A stretch of 64,000 bases of DNA from Planctomycetota bacterium. GTDB taxonomy: Bacteria; Planctomycetota; UBA11346. Positions 10,881 through 62,743 of the stretch are shown one piece after another. The stretch's first letter is position 1; each line of letters begins with the position of its first letter. The stretch lies in assembly GCA_038231435.1 (NCBI GenBank), contig JBBRLJ010000009.1:32001-96000 (forward strand), read 5' to 3'. The notes under the pieces were generated by a model. The model did not search any database. It worked only from the letters and a program-made list of their open reading frames with translations, and was not told the DNA's origin. The translations under genes and the position numbers were made by a program.

Positions 10881-12821
10881 TCAGCCGCCGATGCCGATCT
10901 TGGCCACGCGCTCCTCGGTGCGCCGGACGCGGTCCCAGGCGCTCTTCACGACCTTGTCCTGCTCCGCCGCCGTGTGCGCCGCTGCGTAGCCGGGGATGAC
11001 CCGGCCGCCGCGCTCATCGTCGCGATGCTTGCTGTCCTGCACCAGGGCGGCGTTGACCCGTTCGATCTCGACCAGCCTGCGCATGCGCGCGTTGAAGTTG
11101 CTGTCCGGAAGGAAACGGTCCGCTAGCTCATTGGCGATCTCTGCGGAGCCGGGAATGGTCAGCGTGCCCTCGCGCTCGGACAGGAGCAGCCGGAGCGCGT
11201 AGCGCGTCAGCGCCTGGCCATAGAACTCGATGGCCTTGAGCCGTGATTCCTCGCGTAGGAAGTTCTTGCCGATGCCCTCGATGTCGGTCTCGAGATAGGC
11301 CGGTTTGACCTTCGTCACCGACGAGAGCCGATCGTATGCGTCCTGCACCAGACGCATGATGCGCGGACGCAGGACCTTATAGTCGATGTCGTGGCGGCGC
11401 GCATGGTCCCGACTCGCGAATTTCAGTTCGGTGCGTACCAGACCATAGGCGTTCGAGTACAGGCCCCAGGCCGGGATGATCTCGTTGTAGGCGCGCGGGA
11501 TGGTTTCCTCGTGCTCCTTCAGGGCCTCAGCGGGAATCGTGATCAGGCTGAACGGGAAACGAACCTTCTGCGGCAGCGTGCTCACGCCCATGCCGATCAC
11601 GGTGTACGGGGCTTCGCTGAAATCGGTGGGGAAGCGGATGGCGCAGCCGAGGCCGAAGAATGCCCCTTCGCCCGGCCAGATCTCCTGGTCGGGGGCGCGG
11701 CCGGTATGGTTGGAGCCGACCATGGCGCCGTACGCCACGTTGCCCTTGCCCTCGGGCCAGAATGCGGCGATCAGCAGGCTCTGATGATGAAAACCCACGA
11801 ACGGCCCGAGCAACGTCGCGGTGACCTCGCCCTTGGCGATGGTGGTGTTGGGGCCGATGGCGCTGCCCTCGATCGCGGCATGTTCGTCGGCGGCGCTATG
11901 CTCGAGCATCGCGCTGTGGCGGACGATGGCGTTGCCGGTGATCTTCACCCCCCACTGCAGCACCGAATCGGTCACCGCGCTGCCGCCCGAGACCTCGGTC
12001 GGCTCATCGAGGCTCGACAGCACCGCGACGTTGGTGACTTCCAAGGCGTTGTCGATGATCGCACCGCTGCCGATGTAGGCGTCGCGCACGCGTTCAGCAT
12101 GGCGCACGCGCGCCTTGCGGCGCACCCACGCCACGGGACTGGTGACGGTCTTCTGGTATCTGGCCACAGCCTCGCGCAGCGCTGCTTGTCCGGCCACGTC
12201 GCCGCGATCGCGAGCCGCCATCGCCAGCGAGTCCACCGTGCATTCGGCCCACAGCGGCACGTCGCGGCCGCCCGTTTCGCATGCCAGCGGCAGCGACTGG
12301 CCGCAGCCGAAGTAAGCCGCGCCCGAGCAGGTGATCGATCCGACATCGAAGAGCACTGCGTCACGCTCGACGATGAGGTTGGCGGCGAAGCGCACGTTCT
12401 CGAGCAGGCAGTCGTTCCCAACCTGGCAGGAGATGAGCGTGCAGTCGTAGATGCCAGCCGCGAGGGTGATGCCCGGCATCACCTCGACTTCGCCACCGAA
12501 GCGGCCGAGCACGCAGCGGCCCTTGAAGTGCGTGCGACGGACGCGGAAGCAGTCGAAATCCTGAGCGACCTGGACCTCGGCCCAGTCGGAGGCCCGACAT
12601 CCGCGGTCCTCCATGAGGGCGATCTCTTCACGAGTGAGGTCGCGCAGCAGCAAACCGAGAACGTTGTCGCGCCGCTTGGCCACCTGCTTGGATGCGTCGG
12701 CGAGCTCGGAGCGCTCGCCGATCTGCGCGGCGAGCTCGCTGAGCGTCCTGGGCTGATTGGGCGCCTTGAGCGCGACGTGGAGGTTGCTGTCCTTGGGATC
12801 GGGCAGGGGATTGCTGCTCAC
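10881..12821 (-). CDS. DUF4954 family protein (hexapeptide/beta-helix, GlmU-acetyltransferase-like)
   Basis: LLGPFVGFHHQSLLIA..GKGNVAYGAMVGSNHTGR..PFSLI motifs; GTG start after GGAG. Confidence 0.75.
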   Translation of the reverse strand: MSSNPLPDPKDSNLHVALKAPNQPRTLSELAAQIGERSELADASKQVAKRRDNVLGLLLRDLTREEIALMEDRGCRASDWAEVQVAQDFDCFRVRRTHFKGRCVLGRFGGEVEVMPGITLAAGIYDCTLISCQVGNDCLLENVRFAANLIVERDAVLFDVGSITCSGAAYFGCGQSLPLACETGGRDVPLWAECTVDSLAMAARDRGDVAGQAALREAVARYQKTVTSPVAWVRRKARVRHAERVRDAYIGSGAIIDNALEVTNVAVLSSLDEPTEVSGGSAVTDSVLQWGVKITGNAIVRHSAMLEHSAADEHAAIEGSAIGPNTTIAKGEVTATLLGPFVGFHHQSLLIAAFWPEGKGNVAYGAMVGSNHTGRAPDQEIWPGEGAFFGLGCAIRFPTDFSEAPYTVIGMGVSTLPQKVRFPFSLITIPAEALKEHEETIPRAYNEIIPAWGLYSNAYGLVRTELKFASRDHARRHDIDYKVLRPRIMRLVQDAYDRLSSVTKVKPAYLETDIEGIGKNFLREESRLKAIEFYGQALTRYALRLLLSEREGTLTIPGSAEIANELADRFLPDSNFNARMRRLVEIERVNAALVQDSKHRDDERGGRVIPGYAAAHTAAEQDKVVKSAWDRVRRTEERVAKIGIGG

Positions 12822-12897
12822 AAGACGGCTCCATGGCGAGCGATCGGGCCAGACGACGGGAGACCGGCGGCCGGAAGGTGACGATGCATCGAGGCCA

Positions 12898-13665
12898 CTA
12901 TTCGGCTTCCGCCATCTCGAGGTGCTCCGGGTCGAGCTTGGACGCGGCATCGCGGTCGACGACGATGGTGAGATGCTTGTGGCCGGTGAGCAGGCTGGCG
13001 GGCAGGCCTGGGCCGACCTTGCCCTCGACCATGCGGCGCAGGGATTCGGCCTTGCCCAATCCGGTGACCGCCAGCAACACGGACCGCGACTCGAGGATGG
13101 TCGCGACGCCCATCGAGATGGCGCGCGATGGGGTGGTTTCGAGGTTACGGAAGCGTTCGCCTCCGGAGATCGCGGCCAGGGTCGACGGCGTGAGATCGAC
13201 GAGGCGAGTGCGGCTCTTGGGCGAGCTTCCCGGCTCGTTCAGTCCGACGTGGCCATTGTGGCCGAGGCCAAGCAGGACCAGGTCGATGCCGCCGCGCGCC
13301 TCGATGAGCAGATCGTAGGCCTTGCACTCCGCCTCGACATCGAGCGCGTCGCCGCGTGGGACGTAGGTCTCCTCGCGGGGTATGTCGACTTGGCGAAACA
13401 GGTGCCGGTTCATGATCGCGCGGGTGCTGCGGCGGTCTTCCGGGCGCAGGCCCACGTATTCGTCGGTATTGAAGGTGGACACGTGCGCGAACGAGAAGCC
13501 GCCGCGCTCGTGGTAGCGGCTGACCAGCTCATCATAGGCCACCAGGCTGGTCCGCCCCGCGGACAGGCCGAGATTGAGGCGCGGATTCTTGGTGATGGCG
13601 GCGGCCAGCATGCCGGCGATGAGGTCACCAGAAGCCTCGCGATTCTCGCAGACGATGATCTTCAT
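12898..13665 (-). CDS. nagB: Glucosamine-6-phosphate deaminase
   Basis: TFNTDEYVGL, GGIDLVLLGLGHNGHVGLNEPGS, PASLL motifs. Confidence 0.9.
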   Translation of the reverse strand: MKIIVCENREASGDLIAGMLAAAITKNPRLNLGLSAGRTSLVAYDELVSRYHERGGFSFAHVSTFNTDEYVGLRPEDRRSTRAIMNRHLFRQVDIPREETYVPRGDALDVEAECKAYDLLIEARGGIDLVLLGLGHNGHVGLNEPGSSPKSRTRLVDLTPSTLAAISGGERFRNLETTPSRAISMGVATILESRSVLLAVTGLGKAESLRRMVEGKVGPGLPASLLTGHKHLTIVVDRDAASKLDPEHLEMAEAE

Positions 13666-13910: not shown

Positions 13911-14990
<1,080 letters not shown>

Positions 14991-28199: not shown

Positions 28200-29714
28200 T
28201 CAGTCCAATGACGCCTGTTCGCCGGTGCGGATGACATCCAGCACCTCGGCGGCGGTCTCGGCGTTCTTCAGGCGGTCCTCGACGTACTCGCTGTTCTCGA
28301 GGATGCCGGCGATGCGCGCCTGCAGGCGCTGATGGACGCGCGCCATGCCGGCCGGGGTGAGCAATACGAAGAGCAGATTGGCGCGCTCGGTGGTGCCCTC
28401 GACCGGGATCCCCTGCTCGGAGCGGATGAACAGCAGCGCCGGTCTCGGCAGGCCGGGGATGCGCGCGTGGGGCAGGGCGACGCCCTTGCCGAGGTAGGTG
28501 CCGGCGACGCGCTCACGCTCGAGCACCGCACGGATCACCGATTCGGTGTCGAGTCCCAGGTCGCCCTCGGGGATGCGTGAGAGCGCCTGGCGGATCGCCG
28601 AGGCCAGCGAGCCGGCCTCGATGCCCAGGATGACACGACCGACGGTGATGACCTCGCCCAGCTGGATCGGCGTGTCGACCTCGAACTCGTCGGTGACCGT
28701 GCCGATGATCTCCTCGATGATGTCTTCCATGGTGATGAAGCCAGTCCAGGCGCCCTCGGCGCCGATGACGATGGCGACGTGGATGCGCCGGCGCTGCATG
28801 TCGGCGAGCAGGTTCTCGAGCGCGGTGGACTCCGAGGTGATCAGGTACGGCCGCGCCAGCTTCATCAGATCGGGCTCGGGCATCGGCTGCAGCAGCAAAT
28901 CCTTCACGTGCACCATGCCGAAGGGTTTTTCGGCATGCTCGTTCTCGAGCAGCGGAAAGCGTGAGTAGCGATAGGCCCTCAGCACCTCGAGGTTCATCTC
29001 CCAGGGCGCGTGCAGGTGCAGGAAGCGCACGCTGGCACGGCGGCGCATCGCGTCCGCGACCTTGAGCTCGCCGAGCTCGAAGATGTTCTCCATGAACAGC
29101 AGCCGACGGAACGACATGATGCCGGTGGACTGCGAGCGGTCGAGGATGATGCGCAGCTCATCCTCTGAATGCTGCTCGCCCTCGGCCTGGGGCTTGAGGC
29201 CGAACAGGCGCAAGATCACCTGCGAGGCACCGTTGAGGATCTTGAGCGGGACATAGAAGATGGTGCGCGAGATGCTCAAGGGCAAGGCCGTGAAGGTCGC
29301 CGCCTTGTCCGACAGGCGCAGCGCGACCAGCTTGGGAATCTGCTCGCCGAACAGGATGTGCACACCGGACACCACGAATACGCCGATCAGACTGGCGACG
29401 CCGTGTGCCCATTCATCGACGTGCGGCAGGCCGAGCTTCTCGATGTAGGGCTGCACGAGCATCTTCGCCATCGGCTCGCCGACGAAACCGAGCGCGATCG
29501 AGGCGAAGGTGATGCCGACCTGGCAGACCGAGAGATACTCGTCAAGATTCTCGTTGATGTGCTGGACGAGCTTGGCGCGCGCGTTGCCTTGATTGATCAG
29601 CTCCTCGATCTTCGACGAACGCACCTTCACCGCCGCGAATTCGGCGAGCACGAAGAAGGCGTTCAGCAGCAGCAGGCACGCCGCGGCGATCAGATAGAGC
29701 ATGACGGCGGTCAT
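28200..29714 (-). CDS. CNNM/CorC-family (DUF21 + CBS) membrane protein fused to a PTS EIIA domain
   Basis: LNAFFVLAEFA, QVGIT, GEQIPK, YSRFP, TMEDIIEEIIG motifs; C-terminal LERE..T.LGKGVALPHAR. Confidence 0.88.
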   Translation of the reverse strand: MTAVMLYLIAAACLLLLNAFFVLAEFAAVKVRSSKIEELINQGNARAKLVQHINENLDEYLSVCQVGITFASIALGFVGEPMAKMLVQPYIEKLGLPHVDEWAHGVASLIGVFVVSGVHILFGEQIPKLVALRLSDKAATFTALPLSISRTIFYVPLKILNGASQVILRLFGLKPQAEGEQHSEDELRIILDRSQSTGIMSFRRLLFMENIFELGELKVADAMRRRASVRFLHLHAPWEMNLEVLRAYRYSRFPLLENEHAEKPFGMVHVKDLLLQPMPEPDLMKLARPYLITSESTALENLLADMQRRRIHVAIVIGAEGAWTGFITMEDIIEEIIGTVTDEFEVDTPIQLGEVITVGRVILGIEAGSLASAIRQALSRIPEGDLGLDTESVIRAVLERERVAGTYLGKGVALPHARIPGLPRPALLFIRSEQGIPVEGTTERANLLFVLLTPAGMARVHQRLQARIAGILENSEYVEDRLKNAETAAEVLDVIRTGEQASLD

Positions 29715-32721: not shown

Positions 32722-32878
32722 TGGGGTGGCGTGAGTGTGTGGGCGTGGCGGGGTCGGCAAGCCGGGGTTCGGTACCAGGCCTGGCGATGTTCGGAATGCG
32801 CCTTTGTGATTGGTAGTCGCGCATCAGGGAGTTAGGTATTTCGGCAGCCCCGCACCGAAACCCCAGGCCCAACGTCCC

Positions 32879-34204
32879 ATGCCCGATCCCTTCAAAGCCT
32901 ACGACATCCGCGGCCTCTACCCGCAGGAACTCGACGAGGATCTCGCCTACCACATCGGCAACGCCACCGCCCAGGTGCTCGGCCTGGCCGGCAAGCGCTA
33001 CACCGTGGGCAGGGACATGCGCATGTCCGGCCCGATGCTCAAGGAAGCGCTGATCCGCGGCCTGGTGGACGCGGGGGTATCGGTGGTCGACGTCGGCATG
33101 CTCTCGACGCCAGCCCTGACCTTCGCGATGCACCATCTGGATACGGCCGGCGGAGCCCAGGTCACCGCCAGCCACAACCCCGCCCCCTACGGCGGCGTCA
33201 AGATCACCGGTCCCGGCTGGAAGCCGATCGGCGGTGGCAGCGGCATGGAGGAGATCGAGGCGCTGGCGCGCGCCAAGAAGGTCGTCAAGGCCGCGGGAGG
33301 CCGCATTGACGAGGCGCTCACCATCGACGCCTACGCGACCTTCCTCGCCAAGCTCTTCAAGCCCTCGCGCCCGCTCAAGGTCGTCGTCGATGGCGGCAAC
33401 GGCATCATCGGCACGATGTTCCAGGCACTGTTGCCCAAGCTCACCGGCATCACCATCGTACCGATGTATTTCGATCCGGATGGGCGCTTTCCGCATCATG
33501 AAGCCAATCCCCTCAAGGAGGAGAACCTCAAGGATCTGATCGCGCGCGTGAAGCTCGAGAAGGCCGACTTCGGCGCCGGCTTCGACGGCGACGGCGATCG
33601 CTGCGCGCTCGTCGACGAGAACGGCAAGATCGTCCCCTGCGATCTCGCCACCGCGATCCTGGCCAAGCATTTCCTCACCACCGAGGGCCCCAGCGCGGTG
33701 GTCTACGATCTGCGCAGCTCGAAGGTGGTGCCGGAATACATCCGCTCGCTGGGTGGCACGCCGGTCGAGACCCGCGTCGGCCACAGCTTCATCAAGAAGA
33801 CCATGAAGGAGCACCACGCCTCCTTCGCCGGCGAGCTCAGCGGCCATTACTATTTCCGCGATTTCTTCGGCGCCGATTCGGGGCTCTACGCCTTCCTGCT
33901 GCTCGGCAACATCATCGCCTCGGCGACGAGCCTCAGCTCACTGGTCAAGCCGCTCGAGAAATATTTCCATACCGGCGAGATCAATTTCAAGGTCGCCGAC
34001 GCGGCCGTGGTCATGCAGCGGATGCGCTCCATGCCCGGTGCCCAGGTCAGCGAGCTCGACGGTGTCACGGTGCGATTCGCGGATTGGTGGTGCAATGTCC
34101 GCGCCTCCAACACCGAGCCGGTGGTACGTCTCAATCTCGAGGCCGACAGCGCGGCGTCGAGGGATGCCAAGCTCATCGAGGTGAGGAAGCTCATAACCGG
34201 GTAG
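32879..34204 (+). CDS. Phosphomannomutase/phosphoglucomutase (alpha-D-phosphohexomutase family)
   Basis: FKAYDIRG, VTASHNP, FDGDGDR, GELSGHYYF, VRASNTEP motifs. Confidence 0.92.
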   Translation: MPDPFKAYDIRGLYPQELDEDLAYHIGNATAQVLGLAGKRYTVGRDMRMSGPMLKEALIRGLVDAGVSVVDVGMLSTPALTFAMHHLDTAGGAQVTASHNPAPYGGVKITGPGWKPIGGGSGMEEIEALARAKKVVKAAGGRIDEALTIDAYATFLAKLFKPSRPLKVVVDGGNGIIGTMFQALLPKLTGITIVPMYFDPDGRFPHHEANPLKEENLKDLIARVKLEKADFGAGFDGDGDRCALVDENGKIVPCDLATAILAKHFLTTEGPSAVVYDLRSSKVVPEYIRSLGGTPVETRVGHSFIKKTMKEHHASFAGELSGHYYFRDFFGADSGLYAFLLLGNIIASATSLSSLVKPLEKYFHTGEINFKVADAAVVMQRMRSMPGAQVSELDGVTVRFADWWCNVRASNTEPVVRLNLEADSAASRDAKLIEVRKLITG

Positions 34205-39696: not shown

Positions 39697-40266
39697 TTAC
39701 GCGGGCTTTTTCCCGCCAAAACGTGCGCGCAGGGCCTCGACAACACACGCGTCGGCCCGGGGCGATACGAGCTCGACCGGCGAGATGCCACGGCGCACGG
39801 CGAGCGCGGCCGCGGCCAGCAGCGCAGCTATGGTGATGGCCGCGTTTTGCCAGGACGACAACCCCCACTGGCCCGACCACGACCAGCCGAGATCCGAGAA
39901 CGGCTGCAGGAACGGGATGGGCCACTGGTTGCCATCCGGTCCACGCGCGCCGATCAGATCGCAGGCCAGATGGCCGAGCGCCGCCGCGAGGGCCAAGGCC
40001 GCGACCCGCCAGGTCCTCCCGCCGAACATCCAGGCGCAGCCAGCGATGGCGACGCAGGCCAGCAGGTTGTGGGTGAGGTGGTGATGGAAGCGGTGGAACC
40101 ATTCGATGGGGTGGGCGCTGTCGCGGGTCAATGCCTCGAAGGGATAGCCGAAGCCATCGAGGTCGGGAGCCAGCCCGGCGAGGGTGATGGCGATGCGGCC
40201 GCGCCGGTCGATTCCTGGAGCGTTCGCGAGCAGCCAGCTCAGCAGCCCATGGGTGACCGGACTCAC
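39697..40266 (-). CDS. Membrane-bound metal-dependent hydrolase (YdjM/DUF457-like)
   Basis: TH..LAPDLD..HH.LTH..GHLACD pattern. Confidence 0.75.
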
Positions 40267-41033
40267 GCCGTGGGCTTGCGCTGCGTGGCGGAGCGCTCGG
40301 CGAGCAGGCGTTCGGCGTACGCGAGATCCGCCGGCGTGTTCACGCCGAGCACCGAGGCCACGTCGTCGGTGGTCACCAGCTCAATGGGCTCGCCTGTGGC
40401 CGCGAGCATGCCGACGACGTCGGTCAGGTAGTATTCGCCCTGTGCGTTGTTCGGCTTGACCGCCGCAAGGCAGCGGAAGAGATCGGCGCGGCGGAAGGCG
40501 TAGATGCCACTGTTGACCAGGTCGATCCCGCGCTCGTCTGCGGTCGCGTCCTTGTGCTCGACGATCCTGGTCAGCCTGCCCGAGGCATCGGTGACCATGC
40601 GCCCGTAGCCGGTCGGGTCGCTCATGCGTGCGGCCACGCCGGTGCATGCCGCGCCGGTCCGGGCATGCTTGGTGAGCAGGTCGTCGAGCAGTCGAGCCGG
40701 CGTCAACGGACAGTCGCCGCACAACACCAGTACGGTGTCGCCACGCACCACCGGTTCGGTCACGCGCACGGCATGGCCGGTGCCCAGCTGCCGGTCTTGC
40801 AGCACGCAGTCCGGTTTCCACGGAGCGACCGCCTGCTCGACCCGCTCGCGCTGCCAACCGACCACCACCACGGTCTGGCCGACGCCGAGTTGAGCGCAGG
40901 TATCCAGCACGTGCGCCACCAGCGGCCGGCCCGCGAGAGGATGCAGCACCTTCGCCAGGTCGGAGCCCATGCGCGTGCCCTTGCCCGCCGCGAGGATGAC
41001 GGCGGCGACGGTACGATGCTGGTTCTGGGACAT
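40263..41033 (-). CDS. GlmU-like N-terminal uridyltransferase domain only
   Basis: ILAAGKGTRM.SDLAKVLH, QLGTGHAV, DPTGYGR, NNAQGEYYLTD, GVNT motifs; ends at 256 aa with no beta-helix domain. Confidence 0.88.
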   Translation of the reverse strand: MSQNQHRTVAAVILAAGKGTRMGSDLAKVLHPLAGRPLVAHVLDTCAQLGVGQTVVVVGWQRERVEQAVAPWKPDCVLQDRQLGTGHAVRVTEPVVRGDTVLVLCGDCPLTPARLLDDLLTKHARTGAACTGVAARMSDPTGYGRMVTDASGRLTRIVEHKDATADERGIDLVNSGIYAFRRADLFRCLAAVKPNNAQGEYYLTDVVGMLAATGEPIELVTTDDVASVLGVNTPADLAYAERLLAERSATQRKPTA

Positions 41034-50927: not shown

Positions 50928-52097
50928 ATGCCTGACCGTACGGGAATCCTGCCGCAATCGCCCCGCCACGACGGGGATGAGGATGAATCGCTGTTTCCAG
51001 CGGGCTCGGTGAAATCCGTATCCGCGGACGACATGCGTGACTTGCTACGCCAGCACGGTGAACGCTTCCAGCCCATCCTCGCCGCCCTGCGCGATCAACC
51101 GTGGAAGGAGCTCGTCACCACCCGCGATCTGATGGACAGCCTCTCGGCGCAGGGCCTCGACCTGTCCGAGCGCACGCTGCGCCTGTATCTCGCCGAGATG
51201 GCTGAGGTCGGCCTCATCGAACGTCACGGACGTCGTGGCTACAGCCTCGCCGAAGCCGGCGTCGAGGTCGCGCGCGAGCTCACCATCTCGCGCCGGCTCG
51301 GCAGCATCCTCTACCGCATGGAGGAGACCATGTGCCAGACCAGCTTCGATCTCGCCAGCGGATCGGGTCTGGTCTCGATCAATGCCTACGTCATCCCGCG
51401 GCGCTACGTGCTCGCCCTGTGCGATGAGCTCGAAGCGGTCTTCGCGGCCGGGCTCGCGGTGGGCTCGCGCGTGCTCGTGGCCGCGCCGGGCGAGGACATC
51501 CTCGGCCGCGTCGTGCCCCAGGACTGCATCGGGCTGGGGACCATGTGCTCGCTCACCCTGGCCGGCATGTTCATGCGCCGCGGCATTCCCAGCCATCCCA
51601 TCTTCGGCGGTCTGTTGCATGTCGAAGCTGGTAAGCCCGAGCACTTCCTCGAGATGATCCGCTACGATGCGACCACGCTCAGCCCGAACGAGGTCTTCAT
51701 TCGTGCGAATTTCACCAGCGTCTCGACCGCCGCGCGTACCGGCAAGGGCGCCATCACCGCGTCGTTCCGCGAAGTCCCGATGAGTGCGTTGCCGCGACTG
51801 CGCGAACTGGTGAAAGAGTGCGAGGACGCGCGCTTCCCCGGCATCATGCTGGTCGGTCGGCCAGGCCAGCCGGTGATGAACATCCCCGTGCACGAGGGCC
51901 GCGTCGGCGTGGTGCTCGCCACCGGATTGAATCCGCTCGCCAGCCTGTGGGAGCTCGACCATCGCGGCGATGCGGTGCAGCTCGAGAGCTCGCGGCCGAT
52001 GGTCGGACCCGCCCCCTACGAGAGCCTGATCCCCGTCGCGGATTTCCGCAAGCGCGCCACCGGCCTGGCCGGCGCCACCGCCTCCGCCTCCGCCTGA
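50928..52097 (+). CDS. nrpR: NrpR-family nitrogen transcriptional regulator (wHTH + NRD/DUF128)
   Basis: wHTH DLSERTLRLYLAEM..GLI; NRD motifs G.GLVSIN, GTMCSLT, FGGLL, YDATTLSP.EVFI, ASFREVP, GLNPLA. Confidence 0.82.
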   Translation: MPDRTGILPQSPRHDGDEDESLFPAGSVKSVSADDMRDLLRQHGERFQPILAALRDQPWKELVTTRDLMDSLSAQGLDLSERTLRLYLAEMAEVGLIERHGRRGYSLAEAGVEVARELTISRRLGSILYRMEETMCQTSFDLASGSGLVSINAYVIPRRYVLALCDELEAVFAAGLAVGSRVLVAAPGEDILGRVVPQDCIGLGTMCSLTLAGMFMRRGIPSHPIFGGLLHVEAGKPEHFLEMIRYDATTLSPNEVFIRANFTSVSTAARTGKGAITASFREVPMSALPRLRELVKECEDARFPGIMLVGRPGQPVMNIPVHEGRVGVVLATGLNPLASLWELDHRGDAVQLESSRPMVGPAPYESLIPVADFRKRATGLAGATASASA

Positions 52098-52209
52098 TCC
52101 CCATGACCGGAATCACCACATCTAGCCGCGCCAGCGCACGACCCGACTTCTCACGACCAGGCATCTTCACGATCAGCATCACGACTAGCGTCACGAAAAT
52201 GGACACGCC

Positions 52210-56793
<4,584 letters not shown>

Positions 56794-56855
56794 GCCCGCC
56801 ATCGTCTCGAACCGGCACCGCCTCATCCGCACCAGCATCGTCGAAGGAATCCGTC

Positions 56856-58337
56856 ATGGGTGATCCCAAGGGCTTCATGAAGCATACCCGTCAGGTGCCC
56901 AAGTACCTGCCGGTGGATCTGCGCCTCGCCAATCACGAGGAGCACATCGAGGAGTTCAGCGAGGAGCAGGTGCAGACCCAAGCCAGCCGCTGCATGGACT
57001 GCGGCGTGCCCTTCTGCATGACCGGCTGCCCGCTCGGCAACCTCATCCCGGAATGGAACGACCTGGTCTTCCGCGGACGTTGGAAGGAAGCGCTCGCCGC
57101 GTTGCACGCCACCAACAATTTTCCCGAGTTCACCGGCCGTGTGTGCCCGGCGCCGTGCGAGAACTCGTGCGTGCTCGGCATCAACGAGCCCGCCGTAGCG
57201 ATCAAGCTGCACGAGGTCTCGATCGTCGACAAGGGCTTCGCCATGGGCTGGATCAAGCCCACGCTGCCGCCCTCGCGCACCGGCAAGAAGGTGGCGATCA
57301 TCGGCTCCGGACCCGCCGGGCTCGCTTGCGCGCAGCAACTCAACCGCGCCGGACATGCGGTGATGGTGTTCGAGAAATCAGATCGCGCCGGCGGCCTGCT
57401 CATGTACGGCATCCCGCACTACAAGCTGCGCAAGGAGAAGGTGCAGCGCCGCGTCGACCTGTTGGTCGCCGAGGGCGTCGAATTCACCTTCAGCTGCCAT
57501 GTCGGCGTCGACGTCACCTGGGAGAAGCTGAAGGCGGATTACGACGCAACGGTGATCTGCACAGGCGCCGAGCAGCCCCGCGATCTCGCCATCGAGGGCC
57601 GTGAGCTCGACGGCGTGCACTTCGCCATGGAATTCCTGCCGCAGTCCAATCGCCGCAACTGGGGCGACGAAGATCTCGCCGCGCTGCATCCGAAGAAGCA
57701 GGCCATCGGCGCCGCGCACAAGAAGGTGATCGTCATCGGCGGCGGCGATACCGGATCCGACTGCATCGGCACCTCGCTGCGGCAGGGCGCCGCGAACGTC
57801 ATCAACTTCGAGCTCCTGCCCGAGCCCCCCGGCGCCCGCCCGAACAACAATCCTTGGCCTCAGTGGGCGCGCGTGAAGCGCATCTCGTCCTCGGTCGAGG
57901 AGATGACCGCGAAGGGTGGTGATGTGACCTACTCGGTGGCGACCAAGCGCTTCACCGGCGAAGCGGGTAAGGTGACGGGCCTGGTGACCGTGAAGCTCGA
58001 TTGGTCGTCGGGAAAACCAGTCGAAGTCCCCGGCTCCGAGGAGACCTACGGCTGCGATCTGGTACTGCTCGCAATGGGCTTCCTCGGACCGCGCAAGCTC
58101 GGCATCGTCGAGCAGATCGGCTGCGCGCTCGACCCGCGCTCCAACGTGCAGACCGATCCCGATACGCGCATGACCTCGGTGCCGGGCGTGTTCGCGGCCG
58201 GCGACGCTCGGCGCGGGCAGAGCCTGGTGGTATGGGCGATCAGCGAGGGCCGCGAGGTCGCACGCTGCGTGGATTCGTGGTTGATGAAACATGAATCCCT
58301 CCTACCAAGCGTGCGCATCGAGGCGTTCGCCTACTAG
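56856..58337 (+). CDS. gltD: Glutamate synthase small subunit
   Basis: RCMDCGVPFC..GCP, TNNFPEFTGRVCPAPCE, IGGGDTGSDC, AGDARRGQSLVVWAISEGR motifs. Confidence 0.98.
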   Translation: MGDPKGFMKHTRQVPKYLPVDLRLANHEEHIEEFSEEQVQTQASRCMDCGVPFCMTGCPLGNLIPEWNDLVFRGRWKEALAALHATNNFPEFTGRVCPAPCENSCVLGINEPAVAIKLHEVSIVDKGFAMGWIKPTLPPSRTGKKVAIIGSGPAGLACAQQLNRAGHAVMVFEKSDRAGGLLMYGIPHYKLRKEKVQRRVDLLVAEGVEFTFSCHVGVDVTWEKLKADYDATVICTGAEQPRDLAIEGRELDGVHFAMEFLPQSNRRNWGDEDLAALHPKKQAIGAAHKKVIVIGGGDTGSDCIGTSLRQGAANVINFELLPEPPGARPNNNPWPQWARVKRISSSVEEMTAKGGDVTYSVATKRFTGEAGKVTGLVTVKLDWSSGKPVEVPGSEETYGCDLVLLAMGFLGPRKLGIVEQIGCALDPRSNVQTDPDTRMTSVPGVFAAGDARRGQSLVVWAISEGREVARCVDSWLMKHESLLPSVRIEAFAY

Positions 58338-62661: not shown

Positions 62662-62743
62662 GCGGACATGGCGGAATTGGCAGACGCGCCGGATTTAGGT
62701 TCCGGTCCCGCAAGGGGTGTGGGTTCGAGTCCCTCTGTCCGCA
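62662..62743 (+). tRNA. tRNA-Leu (anticodon TAG), CCA not encoded
   Basis: Acceptor stem GCGGACA/TGTCCGC, D-loop GGAATTGGCAGAC, anticodon arm CCGGA-TTTAGGT-TCCGG, long variable arm, TTCGAGT T-loop. Confidence 0.96.

Follow-up and report, generated by a model that had tools for sequence, protein, structure and literature searches.

Which enzyme acetylates glucosamine phosphate in a bacterium whose GlmU ends after the uridyltransferase domain? The question is raised by a 64,000 nt stretch of a planctomycete genome (contig JBBRLJ010000009.1, positions 32,001 to 96,000; here called the window), in which a gene for a protein of the family DUF4954 follows nagB, the gene for glucosamine-6-phosphate deaminase. 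A preliminary description, made from the letters of the window, had suggested that this protein supplies the acetyltransferase step missing from the GlmU of the same window. From sequence comparison and structure modelling we consider it likely that DUF4954 is a stand-alone glucosamine-phosphate N-acetyltransferase which replaces the second domain of GlmU. The predicted fold, the conserved histidine, the lack of a GlmU-type alternative and the distribution among genomes all fit this part of the earlier proposal, which is kept; a reversal of NagB and a phosphohexomutase at 32879, which it had also invoked, are not needed.

A gap in the UDP-GlcNAc pathway

The window GlmU matches positions 2–243 of the 452 positions of TIGR01173 only, in agreement with the earlier observation that this gene lacks the acetyltransferase domain. 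A second half separated by a frameshift was ruled out, the next gene being an unrelated one for a YdjM-type membrane protein. Neither a GlmU C-domain nor the alternative GlmU enzyme of TIGR03991 was found in the source genome, where the TIGR03991 search gave LpxD alone (E 0.003). The preliminary description had named a second GlmU acetyltransferase in the genome as an argument against its proposal; with the acetyltransferase core of E. coli GlmU as query, no true match, and hence none of the GlmU type, was obtained in this genome or in 24 relatives from the same family. With this query, genuine acetyltransferase domains outside the family reach 1e-22 to 1e-26; of the weak matches within the family the three best, ranking above six weaker ones, were checked and are LpxD. 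The source genome is 87.6% complete and its relatives carry the label Planctomycetota. An artefact of this incompleteness was ruled out by the same absence in the 24 relatives, and therefore the gap is lineage-wide and not an assembly gap. Because glmS and an archaeal-type GlmM score above cut-off on contigs C65 and C1, respectively, and a short GlmU is encoded as well, all steps of the pathway to uridine diphosphate N-acetylglucosamine (UDP-GlcNAc) except the acetylation are present. DUF4954 would complement this uridyltransferase-only GlmU as the GlmU C-domain would.

The DUF4954 gene is single-copy in the source genome, and its product matches PF16314 with 163 bits (gathering cut-off 26.2, E 9e-48). 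Hexapeptide-repeat matches exist in eight further frames, which were named from their translations and not scanned: LpxA, LpxD, CysE, DapD, GlgC, two gamma-carbonic-anhydrase-like proteins and one unknown. None of the eight has the pattern E-x13-H-x13/14-N of DUF4954 and GlmU. An unassigned beta-helix protein on contig C8 (77348–80284, minus strand; locus L007) shows a weak match of the mannose-1-phosphate guanylyltransferase type and lacks the E-x13-H-N motif.

Predicted fold and oligomeric state

The AlphaFold2 model of the protein reaches a predicted local distance difference test (pLDDT) of 94.9 and a predicted template modelling score of 0.93. With the whole model as Foldseek query, the first six rows were GlmU. 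In VIA, the GlmU structure 1g97 aligned over 202 residues with Z 18.1 and a root mean square deviation (rmsd) of 4.5, YdcK, QdtC and GlmU being tied at Z 18–19; Z values of 17–18 to GlmU, QdtC, LpxA and LpxD place the protein in the hexapeptide left-handed beta-helix acyltransferase fold. For the core (residues 270–475), the best query TM-score listed by Foldseek belongs to the GlmU structure 1g95 (0.61 at 2.5 Å). The modelled fold thus indicates a beta-helix acyltransferase and nothing more specific. The structural comparison with GlmU proposed earlier was borne out for the beta-helix itself, but these ties fail to single out GlmU.

Residues 228–530 were also modelled as a trimer, which scored 0.64 against 0.00 for the best control; this result may stem from a resemblance to beta-helix trimers of solved structure. 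Of 30 solved pairs 20 attain the score mark used, and of 23 single chains one does. The trimer runs share at least 86% of their contacts at a pLDDT of at least 78. In the predicted interface H346 and E332 belong to opposite faces.

The left-handed beta-helix is shared with the GlmU C-domain (TIGR01173; 1hv9, 2oi6, 1g97), and so would be the trimer if the prediction holds. In contrast to GlmU, DUF4954 stands alone without a nucleotidyltransferase domain, has a long N-terminal extension, and shows only 14–21% identity in structural alignments. Archaeal enzymes of the ST0452/MJ1101 type (TIGR03992; 5z09) align to the core with Z 16.4 (rmsd 2.2, 150 residues). QdtC, LpxA and LpxD have the same fold and tied Z values, in alignments that reach the helical parts beyond the beta-helix, but share 8–13% identity; the LpxA and LpxD of this genome do not have the motif. 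YdcK, a putative acyltransferase (2f9c, 2pig) and itself uncharacterised, ranks first for the whole model (Z 22.1, rmsd 3.3, 273 residues), but with the core alone its Z is 12.8; the E-x13-H-x13/14-N motif is absent from the E. coli protein.

A GlmU-like pattern of active-site residues

In GlmU, His363 is the catalytic base and Asn residues bind the substrate. The preliminary description had aligned by eye a register E-x5-LG-x6-H. This register is real when compared with E. coli K-12 GlmU (E332 with E349, H346 with H363) and is the same in the profile alignment; its LG is not diagnostic, L338 being leucine in just 38 of 147 relatives and the glycine being replaced in one subfamily. A broad DUF4954 profile aligned to the GlmU C-domain by hhalign with probability 96 (E 3e-9, 128 columns), and GlmU residues E349, H363, N377, N386, G404 and P412 align with E332, H346, N361, N371, G390 and P398 of DUF4954. 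Conservation was judged on an alignment of 149 proteins, each representing a cluster at 50% identity, two giant proteins being excluded. H346 is invariant in all 147 representatives covering that position and E332 is kept in 146. Three DUF4954 subfamilies occur among the genome loci, and E182, R186, E332, H345, H346, N361, R463, K467 and R471 are common to all of them. A histidine that varies within the family, which would have spoken against the earlier proposal, was thus not observed.

The reference spacing is that of E. coli GlmU, E349-H363-N377-N386 (E-x13-H-x13-N-x8-N). It occurs exactly in 22 of 22 GlmU proteins and 120 of 120 DUF4954 proteins of the second subfamily, compared with 8 of 4490 shuffled sequences. 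In the window's own subfamily, which has insertions of one or two residues relative to GlmU, the exact spacing is found in none of 150 representatives; a loose spacing allowing for these extra residues is found in 140 of the 150 and in 120 of 120 close relatives. By chance this loose E/H/N/N pattern arose in 54 of 4490 shuffles and in 8 of 10894 six-frame open reading frames of the genome. The alternative GlmU of TIGR03991 resembles DUF4954 in this respect, as E-x13-H-x13-N is present in 20 of 20 proteins.

The Tyr-Asp following the catalytic histidine of GlmU, its Asn-Tyr-Asp loop and its C-terminal tail have site or coenzyme A (CoA)-binding roles. In DUF4954 the Tyr-Asp is replaced by Leu-Leu or Leu-Ile and the loop by Asn-His-Thr, so that Tyr-Asp follows neither the histidine nor the second asparagine, and the CoA-binding tail is missing as well. 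The invariant R463, K467 and R471 may stand in for these elements.

DUF4954 is outside the GlmU and TIGR03991 families: no GlmU model matches the window protein, and at its locus there is no match to TIGR03991 (membership above 225 bits). The TIGR03991 enzymes, like DUF4954, are found in genomes with a short GlmU and without canonical GlmM; they differ from DUF4954 in architecture and length, show no profile match to it, and are distributed in a nearly mutually exclusive manner.

Distribution among genomes

DUF4954 occurs mostly in bacteria without the known versions of the acetyltransferase. The planctomycete set comprised 221 genomes, 220 of them at least 90% complete plus the source genome. 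DUF4954 is present in 33 genomes belonging to 10 families, and none of these has a full GlmU (27 have a short one, 6 none); TIGR03991 occurs in four of the 33 and a stand-alone TIGR03991-like beta-helix in two more. Among the 188 planctomycetes without DUF4954, 116 have a full GlmU (counted as two in-frame matches; 113 by the cut-off of the tool), 50 have TIGR03991 and 163 have either, and a stand-alone TIGR03991-like piece is present in 11 more. Of the 111 Spirochaetota, 53 have DUF4954 and 53 have TIGR03991, one genome being counted in both groups, and six have neither; of these six, four lack glmS and four have nagA. Among 14 control genomes, Bacteroides thetaiotaomicron alone has DUF4954 and alone lacks a TIGR01173 match at 1e-25, and it is also absent from the TIGR03991 matches. 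Phylogenetic profiling, proposed in the preliminary description, thus supports the assignment by near-complementary patterns in two phyla, with full GlmU or TIGR03991 in Planctomycetota and with TIGR03991 in Spirochaetota.

Partial matches to TIGR03991 (approximately positions 175–358) were seen in 18 planctomycetes, among them G008, G011, G017, G046, G065, G082, G099, G189 and G218. These are possibly stand-alone acetyltransferases and would be another solution to a split GlmU.

Gene neighbourhood and fusions

The arrangement of DUF4954 behind nagB on the same strand, with a gap of 76 bp between the genes (nagB stop at 12898), is as given in the preliminary description. The NagB protein scores 216 bits against TIGR00502, slightly below the cut-off of 236.9. 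Neighbourhoods were compared in the best 80 of 116 related loci, a sample biased to close relatives. Six of the 80 lack room upstream of DUF4954; of the other 74, 60 have a co-oriented nagB no more than 2.5 kb upstream and 14 do not. The linked pair occurs in records with the titles Planctomycetota, Omnitrophota, Sumerlaeota, Latescibacterota, Lentisphaeria and Spirochaetes. The gapA-like neighbour is restricted to close relatives (18 of 80 loci), and neither the window mutase nor the window GlmU has a match in any of the 80. The order ROK-nagB-DUF4954 exists in six loci and a ROK gene also at L109. Among 51 scanned neighbours there are, furthermore, divergent glmS-type genes (L227, L228), SIS genes (L119, L121) and many unrelated genes. 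Two giant proteins, P0147 (2641 aa) and P0190 (3342 aa), combine GlmS-like domains with a complete DUF4954 having an intact motif, and carry apparent signal peptides.

The NagB proteins of the close relatives (window, L028–L057) form a distinct subtype when compared with NagB adjoining more distant DUF4954 genes, in that the phosphate-loop motif at their N-terminus is altered and extra residues are inserted around positions 165–175.

Proposed reaction and substrate

As a homotrimer, DUF4954 would acetylate a glucosamine phosphate at its 2-amino group, with a thioester as donor (acetyl-CoA, or perhaps acetyl bound to acyl carrier protein in some lineages). By analogy to GlmU, His346 would act as base, oriented by Glu332, in an intersubunit cleft, and Asn361 and Asn371 would serve as they do in GlmU. 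In this genome GlmS would provide glucosamine-6-phosphate (GlcN-6-P), the archaeal-type GlmM would move the phosphate, DUF4954 would acetylate, and the short GlmU would finally uridylylate the product to UDP-GlcNAc. The mutase at 32879, suggested earlier as a possible link between the steps, scores best with PRK09542 (426 bits), a PMM/PGM-type model, and stays below both GlmM cut-offs (TIGR03990, 334 of 439 bits; TIGR01455, 183 of 448); the enzyme on C1 fits better.

Our tentative choice of substrate is glucosamine-1-phosphate, in line with the GlmU-like site and the presence of a GlmM-type mutase. GlcN-6-P is an only slightly less likely candidate, to which the conserved neighbours point, all of them acting on 6-phosphates. 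In the eukaryote-type route GlcN-6-P is acetylated before the mutase step by GNA1, a GNAT-fold enzyme; the same logic would hold for DUF4954 if its substrate were GlcN-6-P, as the nagB, glmS, ROK and nagA neighbours suggest, but with a beta-helix instead of the GNAT fold. Rather doubtful is a wider version, according to which DUF4954 is a third enzyme family for UDP-GlcNAc acetylation, acts on GlcN-6-P and forms a reversible, glutamine-independent module with NagB. This module would convert fructose-6-phosphate, ammonium and an acetyl-thioester into N-acetylglucosamine-6-phosphate (GlcNAc-6-P), in some lineages with an acyl carrier protein as donor. In Bacteroides, many spirochaetes and several lineages of the PVC type the steps would then follow an order resembling that of eukaryotes, carried out with a fold derived from GlmU. 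The lack of a canonical glmM was considered as a sign of the 6-phosphate route and found uninformative: TIGR01455 is absent from all 33 DUF4954 planctomycetes, and most genomes with the alternative GlmU lack it, too.

Observations against the assignment

A number of findings weigh against DUF4954 as the missing acetyltransferase. At the level of sequence, a narrower DUF4954 profile slipped to another coil with a shifted register in hhalign, and with the core only the probability was 10–32. The hidden Markov model of the GlmU core fails to detect the DUF4954 protein in its own genome, phmmer of the protein against the PDB finds nothing, other direct sequence searches of the PDB gave nothing specific to DUF4954, and matches in the ESM Atlas were all below 0.9 and serve as leads only. 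GlmU has no counterpart to the approximately 400 residues that lie outside the core. With regard to structure, the wide search with the whole model places YdcK (Z 22.1) and QdtC (18.8) before GlmU (18.0), the core alone gives a tie of QdtC (17.6), GlmU (17.4), LpxA (17.2) and LpxD (17.2), and the Foldseek list for the core is headed by other N-acetyltransferases and gamma-carbonic anhydrases. A GNAT-type acetyltransferase in the source genome may supply the missing step.

The distribution is not without exceptions either. No candidate at all was found in 14 planctomycetes that lack DUF4954 (G001, G016, G022, G027, G029, G034, G035, G038, G042, G050, G053, G163, G195 and G203), and therefore further solutions for the acetylation exist. 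Several of these 14 have canonical glmM, and a further enzyme may await discovery there. The Fisher p of 2e-17 for the exclusion in planctomycetes is inflated by kinship, related genomes not being independent, and therefore we place weight on its repetition in two phyla. The TIGR01173 cut-off is passed by 12 of 44 other DUF4954 genomes, most of these GlmU looking eroded, and all six spirochaetes with a full GlmU also have DUF4954, four of the six coming from the set of DUF4954 loci. Two spirochaetes (G264, G253) even carry two DUF4954 genes each, from two subfamilies, beside a full-length GlmU; the second copy also adjoins nagB (L206, L207). Among 18 GlmU-like genes compared the exact motif is kept in six, two of which look canonical with a full C-terminal tail and four of which end before this tail. 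In four others N377 is changed and a canonical tail is missing, five have a decayed site, two are cut short and one belongs to another family. At L198–L204 (G254, G226, G224, G235, G237, G261 and G225) the motif of GlmU is lost, loops have insertions, or the protein is truncated near residue 330–360. Judged from these sequences, the state of GlmU in DUF4954 genomes looks like graded erosion after displacement.

Alternative explanations

In an extension of the acetyltransferase assignment, NagB would run in the aminating direction and feed DUF4954 directly, so that GlcNAc-6-P would arise independently of glutamine on a path parallel to that of GlmS. This would suit the existence of a second nagB next to a nagA-like gene on contig C40, to which the window NagB is 30% identical, the retention of nagB-DUF4954 without nagA in the family, and the case of G057, in which nagB adjoins DUF4954 without a glmS match. 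However, glmS is present in the source genome, in eight of eight family relatives, in 29 of 32 DUF4954 planctomycetes and in 33 of the 42 DUF4954 spirochaetes tested (of 53), and the sequence gives no sign of direction. Since glmS is present, a reversal of NagB, raised as a possibility in the preliminary description, is optional and not a requirement; we think it unlikely.

Distinctly unlikely appears an acyltransferase for another acceptor, either an amino-sugar nucleotide as for QdtC or a lipid A-type substrate with an acyl-ACP (acyl carrier protein) donor, the GlmU step then falling to some enzyme of another kind, for example a GNAT. The tied Z values with QdtC, LpxA and LpxD, the large extra domains and the coexistence with motif-bearing full GlmU in some genomes are in its favour. 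It would have to be reconciled with the GlmU-type E/H/N/N spacing, the near-complementary distribution in two phyla, the hexosamine neighbours and GlmS fusions, and with LpxA and LpxD being present separately.

We give little credence to a catabolic or reversible transacetylase, by which DUF4954 would move the acetyl group of GlcNAc-6-P to CoA or an acyl carrier instead of its hydrolysis by NagA, and NagB would remove GlcN-6-P and pull the reaction toward glycolysis, the acetyl being saved as thioester. The tight link to nagB, the six ROK-nagB-DUF4954 loci, the gapA-like neighbour, an ATP-grasp gene before nagB at L207 (probably of the acyl-CoA synthetase type) and the absence of nagA from eight of eight family relatives would all agree with this. 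Yet nagA is found in 23 of 53 DUF4954 spirochaetes compared with 3 of 53 having the alternative GlmU, as well as in 11 of 32 DUF4954 planctomycetes compared with 24 of 48 others tested, and at L209 a nagA-like gene stands directly before DUF4954. The predicted exclusion with nagA is thus not seen, which speaks against a role in replacing NagA. Moreover, amide-to-thioester transfer is energetically uphill, and the exclusion with GlmU acetyltransferases would be left unexplained. As a separate observation, the open frames that contain the nagA matches of G275, G338, G348 and further spirochaetes are approximately 655–690 aa long, suggesting a NagA fused to a second domain.

A non-catalytic beta-helix, serving as scaffold or NagB regulator as in eIF2B or GlgC, is very improbable. 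In its favour, the best sequence-profile matches in the PDB are gamma-carbonic-anhydrase-like proteins and eIF2B subunits. These matches are limited to generic repeats before the core (profile 195–308), however; polar residues that are invariant gather where the subunits are predicted to meet, and DUF4954 lies away from nagB in many genomes.

Relation to previous work

A full-text literature search, with most subscription journals outside its scope, yielded no functional assignment of DUF4954. In the portions consulted of PMC6953169, a T. pallidum gene list, and of PMC9498942 it appears merely as a label. The main text of a preprint (bioRxiv 10.1101/2025.10.10.681549) has no match to DUF4954 or PF16314, nor do nine supplementary files of PMC8121099 with essentiality data. 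According to passages of PMC4358021, C. canimorsus is without GlmM and the acetyltransferase, 30 of 45 Bacteroidetes genera have a monofunctional uridyltransferase, and most Bacteroidetes were inferred to be unable to make GlcNAc and hence auxotrophic; excerpts of PMC7725333 describe the UDP-GlcNAc pathway as incomplete throughout the FCB group and Spirochaetes. DUF4954 probably fills this gap, previously taken as pathway loss. If the assignment as acetyltransferase is true, a stand-alone enzyme closes part of the GlmU hole, TIGR03991 covering another part, and a family of which one subfamily alone comprises at least 8000 sequence clusters receives a function. Metabolic models would be corrected for bacteria of the gut and of the environment, and a cell-wall enzyme unlike canonical GlmU would come into view.

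Features of the window

The coordinates of the genes discussed are compiled in Table 1.

Table 1. Genes and sites of the window related to DUF4954.
Feature	Position	Strand	Remarks
DUF4954 protein	10881..12821	-	646 aa, GTG start; long left-handed beta-helix and helical C-terminal region
GlmU-like active-site coil region, G331–G390	11652..11831	-	contains E332, H345, H346, N361, N371, H372; codons: G331 from nt 11831, G390 to nt 11652, E332 11826–11828, H346 11784–11786
nagB, glucosamine-6-phosphate deaminase	12898..13665	-	255 aa, ATG at 13665
gapA-like gene	13911..14960	-	upstream of nagB; name from translation, not scanned
phosphohexomutase, PMM/PGM type	32810..34204	+	probably not the linking GlmM
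uridyltransferase-only GlmU	40263..41033	-	256 aa; presumed downstream partner, 27 kb off and outside the operon

No promoter, terminator or riboswitch was found near the nagB-DUF4954 operon, and the sole match of an Rfam scan of the window is one tRNA at 62662–62743 (plus strand). Elsewhere in the window, a CNNM/CBS membrane protein and a phosphotransferase system (PTS) EIIA domain are joined in one fusion (28200–29714, minus strand), and a gene for an NrpR-type nitrogen regulator is followed by those for the large and small subunits of glutamate synthase (50928–58337, plus strand).

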